DNA of 36,109 bases from a virus (taxonomy: Duplodnaviria; Heunggongvirae; Uroviricota; Caudoviricetes): IMG/VR virus record IMGVR_UViG_641736116_000027; one strand, 5' to 3'. Every line of letters starts with the position of its first letter. Within the stretch, counting starts at the first letter, position 1. Of this stretch, positions 1,370-2,297 are shown piece by piece. Both the position numbers and the translations under genes were made by a program. A model generated the notes under the pieces. It had not been told where the DNA came from. It saw only the letters and a program-made list of their open reading frames with translations, and did no database searches.

Positions 1370-1472
1370 TTGTCCTCCTCTTAGCTGCTGAGGGAGTTTG
1401 TGACCGATATATCTGACATGATATTAAGCTCATGGCAGGTACATCTCTTGACTGGTCATAGAGATAAATTTA

Positions 1473-2297
1473 ATGCTGAGAAATGCAGTATTGAATTTAT
1501 CAATTTTTCACCAGCTTCTGGTCTTTCTGGCTGTCATGCGCAAAACATATGGCTTTAATAAAAAACTGGATTGGGTTAGCAACGAGCAACTTTCCGAATT
1601 AACCGGGATATTGCCGCACAAGTGTTCTGCTGCAAAAAGTGTTCTGGTAAAGCGTGGGATTTTTATTCAGAGCGGGCGGAATACCGGCATTAATAATGTG
1701 GTCAGTGAATGGTCAACATTACCCGAATCAGGTAAGAAAAATAAAGTTTACCTGAAAGAGGTAAATTTACCTGAATCAGGTAAAAAAAGTTTACCCAAAT
1801 CAGGTAAAGGCGTTTACCCGAATCAGGTAAACACAAAAGACAAACTAACAAAAGACAATATAAAACCTTTTTCGTCCGAGAATTCTGGCGAATCCTCTGA
1901 CCAACCAGAAAACGATCTTCCTGTGGTGAAACCGGATGCTGCAATTCAGAGCGGCAGCAAGTGGGGGACAGCAGAAGACCTGACCGCCGCAGAGTGGATG
2001 TTTGACATGGTGAAGACCATCGCGCCATCAGCCAGAAAACCGAATTTTGCAGGGTGGGCTAACGATATCCGCCTGATGCGTGAACGTGACGGACGTAACC
2101 ACCGCGACATGTGCGTGCTGTTCCGCTGGGCATGCCAGGACAACTTCTGGTCCGGTAACGTGCTAAGTCCGGCCAAACTCCGCGACAAGTGGACCCAGCT
2201 CGAAATCAACCGTAACAAGCAACAGGCAGGCATGATAGCCAGCAAACCAAAACTCGACCTGACAAACACTGACTGGATTTACGGGGTGGATTTATGA
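1473..2297 (+). CDS. O: replication initiator O-like, N-terminally truncated (C-terminal domain lambda-like)
   Basis: The C-terminal ~100 aa match lambda O as I recall it (WMFDMVKTIAPSARKPNFAGWANDIRLMRERDG...TDWIYGVDL). The N-terminal part aligns to lambda O only from about lambda residue 49, so roughly 36 N-terminal residues are missing. Iterons lie inside the ORF and its stop overlaps the P start (ATGA). Confidence 0.8.
   Translation: MLRNAVLNLSIFHQLLVFLAVMRKTYGFNKKLDWVSNEQLSELTGILPHKCSAAKSVLVKRGIFIQSGRNTGINNVVSEWSTLPESGKKNKVYLKEVNLPESGKKSLPKSGKGVYPNQVNTKDKLTKDNIKPFSSENSGESSDQPENDLPVVKPDAAIQSGSKWGTAEDLTAAEWMFDMVKTIAPSARKPNFAGWANDIRLMRERDGRNHRDMCVLFRWACQDNFWSGNVLSPAKLRDKWTQLEINRNKQQAGMIASKPKLDLTNTDWIYGVDL
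1719..1866 (+). repeat. ori-like iterons (five ~17-bp direct repeats) plus A-rich tract
   Basis: Repeats TTACC(C/T)(G/A)AATCAGGTAA at 1719-1735, 1767-1783, 1791-1807 and 1814-1830, with a degenerate copy at 1748-1764. Each has internal dyad symmetry (TTACC...GGTAA). An A-rich tract follows at 1831-1866. This mirrors lambda ori inside O. Confidence 0.7.

Follow-up and report, generated by a model that had tools for sequence, protein, structure and literature searches.

The 36,109-nucleotide stretch of DNA that we analysed (the window) is identified by its sequence as Sp8, a defective lambda-like prophage that sits at icd in the E. coli O157:H7 lineage. We hold it very likely that the following is jointly true: the element is Sp8 at icd, it underwent one deletion of its early region, and it has since been passed on vertically as a fossil locked in place, a mark of the O157:H7 clone. 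The feature is an ordinary one. The defect of Sp8 was already known and was published in 2009, and the O remnant had already been flagged as a pseudogene by the NCBI pipeline, so that to this extent the finding adds little beyond bookkeeping. What is new here is that the breakpoint is placed exactly, at C1509 with 1 nt of microhomology, and that the loss is sized (7,123 bp) and listed gene by gene against extant phages.

We aligned the window to the chromosome of strain Sakai (NC_002695.2), where positions 1618292-1662679 are annotated as "prophage Sp8; lambda-like phage". Window positions 1-3323 (int, xis, the junction, the O remnant that we call O', P and ren) were 100% identical to Sakai Sp8, with ECs_1609-ECs_1611 at the junction, and positions 4634-31960 were 99.97% identical. 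The two prophages share the icd site and the whole int-xis-junction-O'-P-ren sequence, and Sakai Sp8 differs in two respects: it has neither the IS629 copy that the window carries at 3324-4633 nor the 4-bp deletion at 6320. When complete E. coli genomes were searched by megablast, O157:H7 chromosomes gave 100% matches, with the integrase gene just downstream of icd; in the genomes with identical sequence the distance from icd to int was 114 bp, which places the insertion at the 3' end of icd, and attL falls outside the window. The published integration site of Sp8 is likewise icd (PMC8190617). In the literature we found no paper that pairs Sp8 with CP-933X, a candidate for its name in EDL933.

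The gene order of the window is lambda-like (int-xis, O-P-ren, nin, Q, lysis, cos-terminase, head-tail) and its right end is the tail-fibre assembly gene. Of the components of lambdoid immunity (cI, cro, the operators, pL/pR, N), the window has none. Because the immunity region and N are missing, the element is a defective derivative of a lambdoid prophage; Sp8 has been described as lacking CI and Cro (PMC2669165). We also considered a PICI or phage satellite, meaning a small island with an integrase, its own replication module and capsid-redirecting genes but without a full set of virion genes. This was rejected: the terminase, head, tail and tail-fibre genes are complete and collinear with those of Sp8 and lambda.

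The left end of the window carries an intact integrase gene of the phage-21 type, which targets icd (1-1143, minus strand, 380 aa; Pfam Arm-DNA-bind_1 and Phage_integrase; 98.7-99% DNA identity to phage 21 and PhiR47_2). It is followed by an intact xis gene (1133-1369, minus strand, 78 aa; Pfam Exc; called excisionase in the annotations of phage 21 and of O157 genomes). The distance from the xis start codon to the ATG of O' at 1473 is 103 bp, in agreement with the first-pass annotation, which had placed int-xis about 100 bp from a truncated O gene. Positions 1370-1509 are a phage-21-type remnant of the DNA between xis and the next pL-operon gene, which encodes a DUF4222 protein. On the phage 21 map the remnant ends at the final base of the DUF4222 stop codon: the coding sequence of DUF4222, the first pL-operon gene beyond xis, starts at 9410 of phage 21, which is window position 1509.

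The deletion junction lies at 1509/1510, 140 bp from xis. By direct alignment, with the break shown as a slash, the left parent reads ...CAATTTTTC/TATTTCC, the right parent reads ...AACACAGC/ACCAGCTTC and the window reads ...CAATTTTTCACCAGCTTC. C1509 is the sole base common to both parents, which points to illegitimate recombination with 1 nt of microhomology. The junction had first been put at the ATG, near 1473; the phage alignments do not agree with that position and move the breakpoint to 1509/1510. Positions 1-1509 were 98.7% identical to phage 21 and 99.0% identical to PhiR47_2, and 1100-1509, including the remnant, was 99.3-99.5% identical to 27 phage records, phage 21 among them. All of these matches stopped at 1509. 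From 1509 onward, about 300 phage records matched through O, P and ren; the best was PhiR70_1 (98.3% over 1509-3323, versus 97.3% for PhiR47_2).

Both flanks of the junction occur in the normal order and about 7.1 kb apart in phages deposited as complete genomes: PhiR47_2 (PV340567.1; host E. coli C) and the similar phages 4A7, Lambda_4C10, 1W, 3W and Perceval. Positions 130-1638 of PhiR47_2, with the same int-xis module, correspond to window 1-1509 (99.0%), and positions 8762-10576 to window 1509-3323 (97.3%); the O-P-ren-emrE-ybcK-nin backbone is shared at 94-97% in the same order. PhiR47_2 carries 7,123 bp that the window lacks, a figure that is relative to present-day relatives since the ancestor phage is not known, and phages of this type are the undeleted counterparts of Sp8. 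A single deletion by illegitimate recombination would have joined the last base of the DUF4222 stop codon to codon 48 of O.

Could the junction instead have arisen with no internal deletion, when illegitimate recombination joined a phage-21-like resident of icd to another lambdoid genome, the source of O'-P-ren and what follows? Lambdoid genomes are mosaic, and the left flank is closest to phages of the phage-21 type. Phage 21 itself (OL657228.1) shares int, xis, the icd-targeting att module and the xis-proximal DNA with the window at 98.7%, and P and ren at 95%. It differs in having a complete immunity and early-left region, in its lambda-type O N-terminal domain and iterons, in its nin, Q and lysis regions and in its cosB. 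Right of the junction only 1831-3267 matches phage 21 DNA, the right flank departs from phage 21 O in the N-terminal domain, and the O proteins are 69% identical. Against an origin from two prophages stands the fact that PhiR47_2, 4A7, 1W, 3W, Perceval and Lambda_4C10 each hold both flanks, at 97-99.5%. One internal deletion is therefore sufficient and more parsimonious, and we regard the recombination of two prophages as distinctly improbable, although it or a two-step history would yield the same junction.

We read the content of the missing interval from the maps of PhiR47_2 and phage 21. The annotation of PhiR47_2 places orf61, orf63, orf60a, exo, bet, gam, kil, a GevAT pair, cI, cro, cII and the start of O in this interval, and the phage 21 map adds N, nutL, nutR, pL/OL, pR/OR, cIII, ral and ea10, a gene list that is relative to the present-day annotations of these two phages. 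Codons 1-47 of O were lost as well. A tblastn search of the whole window with cI, cro, cII, cIII, N, ral, ea10, exo, bet, gam, kil and GevAT from phage 21 and PhiR47_2 gave a best E value of 0.013. With no match at E<0.01, and a junction that leaves no room for these genes, the initial remark that nothing here resembles cI, cro, cII, N or exo/bet/gam holds. As read from the phage maps, the deletion took the promoters pL and pR with the operators, the genes N, cI, cro and cII and, with phage 21 as the guide, cIII. The junction alignments, the tblastn search and the truncation of O' together bear out the description of the element as a deletion-derived cryptic prophage without an immunity or early-left region.

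The deletion left a fusion ORF. In O' (1473-2297, plus strand, 274 aa; ECs_1611 of Sakai, annotated there as "phage replication protein"), 12 junction-derived codons (MLRNAVLNLSIF) precede residue 48 of O, and from there the ORF follows O to its end. PGAP calls it a pseudogene, "incomplete; missing N-terminus". A check for a stop codon upstream of 1473, suggested at the first pass, found an in-frame TGA at 1449-1451, 7 codons before the ATG. By tblastn, phage 21 O (299 aa) aligned from residue 48 to window 1509-2294. We take its first 80 residues to be those of lambda O, and the earlier alignment to lambda O from about residue 49 was right. The match to PhiR70_1 O (98% identical; annotated as 339 aa from an upstream start) began at codon 78, which is residue 48 when counted from the lambda-like MANTAEIFNF start. 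O' was 93.8% identical to PhiR47_2 O, also annotated as 339 aa, over residues 64-339 of the protein.

Could O' nevertheless be a native short O with this N-terminus, or the product of a mis-assembly that dropped the immunity region? ECs_1611 is called simply "phage replication protein" in Sakai, and the replication functions of Sp8 have been scored "+" (PMC2669165). However, 27 phages have, downstream of their DUF4222 gene, non-coding DNA that is 99% identical to the 36 bp encoding the 12 N-terminal codons; these codons are translated intergenic DNA from the xis side, and their junction-derived nature had been correctly recognised at the outset. The Pfam domain Phage_rep_O (PF04492) is cut at profile position 28: O' covers positions 28-95 of 95, starting at its residue 13, whereas a full-length homologue covers 1-95. 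A full-length O homologue with the N-terminus of this ORF, which would have spoken against truncation, was not found; full-length homologues (97-98% identical) have a different, lambda-like N-terminus. The junction is moreover common to 296 independently finished genomes, and some 2,400 genomes carry its halves separately (see below). The 27-phage match, the Pfam cut and the genome counts rule out both a native short O and an assembly artefact, to which together we assign next to no probability.

To score the occurrence of the junction, we searched 5,426 complete E. coli genomes with a 50-bp probe that has the junction at its centre. It matched 296 genomes, 295 of them at 100% identity, and nothing else; in a spread sample of 60, the serotype-labelled records were all O157:H7. 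A 201-bp probe matched about 2,400 further genomes over one half only, either 1410-1509 (DUF4222) or 1509-1610 (replication protein), and these matches broke at 1509. A junction found in 296 genomes, together with half-matches that break at 1509, argues for a single historical event, clonal in O157:H7, and against an assembly artefact or a recurrent mosaic joint. The first-pass annotation had also raised the prospect of immunity genes lying between int and O in the true genomic context; this was not the case, and the 296 complete genomes are contiguous there. The 50-bp junction is thus a clean clonal marker for O157:H7.

We inspected the region around the junction for expression signals. The ATG at 1473 lies within an AT-rich hairpin (1463-1501, plus strand; a terminator-like match, -22.9 kcal/mol, z=-2.8), whose 16-bp stem is followed by AATTTTTC and which is placed directly before the junction. 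We weighed the hairpin and its T-run as a terminator or as the cause of the deletion and set both aside: the structure is part of the phage-21-side sequence and is kept, downstream of the DUF4222 gene, in 27 phages of the phage-21 type. On direct reading, we saw no good Shine-Dalgarno sequence before the ATG of O'. A crude consensus scan of 1100-3400 found no sigma-70-like promoter on either strand (2.4 were expected from shuffled sequences) and so gave no evidence that the junction created a promoter for O'-P or for xis-int.

In lambda, int and xis are read from pL with the help of N and also from a cII-dependent promoter, while pR, again with N, serves O, P, the nin region and Q. By analogy, the loss of pL, N and cII would leave int and xis with no known promoter, and the prophage would not excise. 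The loss of pR and N would likewise abolish transcription of O'-P-nin-Q, and with no Q the late genes would not be expressed. O', int and xis are thereby predicted to be silent. The intact late region, cos and the morons would be usable only for recombination or through trans-activation by other lambdoid phages.

In Sakai, Sp8 neither circularized nor replicated nor was packaged, whether or not mitomycin C was added (Table 2 of PMC2669165). This phenotype agrees with a prophage that is unable to excise, replicate or reach late transcription alone. Sp8 might still be a helper-dependent mobilisable element, whose excision, replication and packaging would be driven by a co-resident or superinfecting lambdoid phage that provides Int/Xis expression together with an O and a Q that match. 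Intact ori, cos and virion genes would in principle allow such a rescue; the ori iterons, P, Q, cos and terminase are kept along with all morphogenetic genes, and other defective Sakai prophages have been rescued by complementation between prophages (PMC2669165). However, in Sakai, with 17 other prophages and with Sp5 and Sp15 induced by mitomycin C, Sp8 gave no circle, no replication and no packaged DNA (PMC2669165). Most O157 genomes contain O codons 48 to about 81, the right half of the junction probe, only once, and so have no resident source of the same O type. Furthermore, a heterologous cII or N would have to act on int and xis promoters that are deleted. We consider mobilisation by a helper unlikely: the helper would need the same O, Q and int specificities, and we found no support for this.

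We asked what remains of the replication module. The origin lies within O' (1719-1862): a repeat search located five iterons TTACCYGAATCAGGTAA (1719-1835) and then an A-rich direct repeat (1833-1862), the same position as the annotated ori iterons within phage 21 O. Thus, O' retains two features of a lambda O initiator, the iterons inside the gene and the conserved C-terminal half, and lacks a third, the complete N-terminal origin-binding domain. Missing are 20 N-terminal residues and 27 of the 95 Phage_rep_O positions, which belong to the origin-binding domain. A PDB sequence search with full-length O found no solved structure. With 47 residues missing, an ATG inside a hairpin and no good Shine-Dalgarno sequence, O' is most likely inactive or unmade, and would probably be neither expressed nor able to fire the retained ori. 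This reading conflicts with Table 1 of PMC2669165, where the replication functions of Sp8 are scored "+"; we think that this score probably overlooked the truncation of O. The table would then need a correction, since the replication module of Sp8 is not intact and its O is without 47 N-terminal residues.

If O' were transcribed at a low level, the product would keep the C-terminal half without part of the origin-binding domain. The C-terminal half of lambda O is the part that contacts P. O' and the five chromosomal iterons could then sequester P, or titrate the O protein of superinfecting phages of the same replication type, and the locked prophage would be a domesticated interference module under selection in O157:H7. 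We regard such interference as very improbable. The 100% conservation of the junction in 295 of the 296 genomes fits selection and recent clonal descent equally.

Downstream of O', P, a lambda-type helicase loader (2294-2995, plus strand, 233 aa), is intact and annotated in identical genome records, and ren follows at 2992-3294 (plus strand, an ORF annotated in the genomes). The emrE gene, the ybcK-like recombinase and nin-type genes are also kept. The late antiterminator gene Q (8677-9366, plus strand) is collinear with ECs_1620 of Sakai, and the lysis genes for holin, endolysin and Rz occupy 9676-10914. We located cosN (GGGCGGCGACCT, 12992-13003, plus strand), upstream of terminase, by alignment to the circularised cos junction of phage 21. 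The terminase genes (13181-15626) and everything from there through the tail-fibre assembly gene are collinear with Sakai Sp8. The initial statement that the ori iterons, P, the lysis cassette, cos and the full structural set are retained is therefore correct. Among the morons, emrE, bor and lom are kept, and the catalase gene lies outside the window. The cosQ-cosN segment (12935-13058) was 86% identical to phage 21 over 124 bp, with cosN itself identical, and diverged on the cosB side from about 13033; from that point it presumably resembles lambda cosB.

The cryptic prophage DLP12 of K-12 shares the same backbone: P'-ren-emrE-ybcK...rusA-ylcG and rzpD-bor-ybcV-ybcW-ylcI-nohD match the window at 93-99.5%, in blocks at 2684-3323, 4634-8681, 10454-14008 and 35674-36091. 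Like Sp8, DLP12 lost its whole immunity and early region by deletion. In contrast to Sp8, it is integrated at argU with another int, and its junction, exoD'/peaD', is an independent one that corresponds to window position 2684 inside P, so that DLP12 retains neither O nor ori. All of its morphogenesis genes, which the window keeps, were lost in another deletion that runs from terminase A' to tfaD. We rejected a DLP12-type identity for the window, because both the integration site and the deletion junction differ. By sequence, DLP12 is a sister fossil of the same backbone. The window shows the DLP12 backbone as it was before its two deletions (exoD'/peaD' and A'/tfaD).

The window also carries further lesions that Sakai Sp8 does not share. 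A full IS629/IS1203 element of the IS3 family (3324-4633, plus strand, 1,310 bp, target duplication GTA) is inserted between ren and emrE; as Sakai Sp8 lacks it, it is an extra, strain-specific lesion. In DLP12, an IS3 interrupts renD about 240 bp from this position. None of the top matches, each of which aligned in 4 pieces, had IS629 at the exact position seen in the window; in other O157 strains, IS629/IS1203 sits elsewhere in Sp8, in P, in ybcK or after bor. Rfam and tRNA scans of the whole window returned only two features and nothing at the junction: an ALIL frameshift pseudoknot within IS629 (3659-3775), and a full-length IS009 match (229 bits, 35871-36069) inside the tail-fibre assembly gene region. 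Relative to Sakai, the 4-bp deletion at 6320 (TTGC/TGCT) splits the 508-aa ybcK-like serine recombinase into two ORFs (5252-6379 and 6403-6774). Strain F7386 carries IS1203/IS629 at that exact spot (...AATGAAT/IS/GAATTGCTTTTT), and the 4-bp deletion would thus seem to be what an imprecise excision of IS629 left behind.
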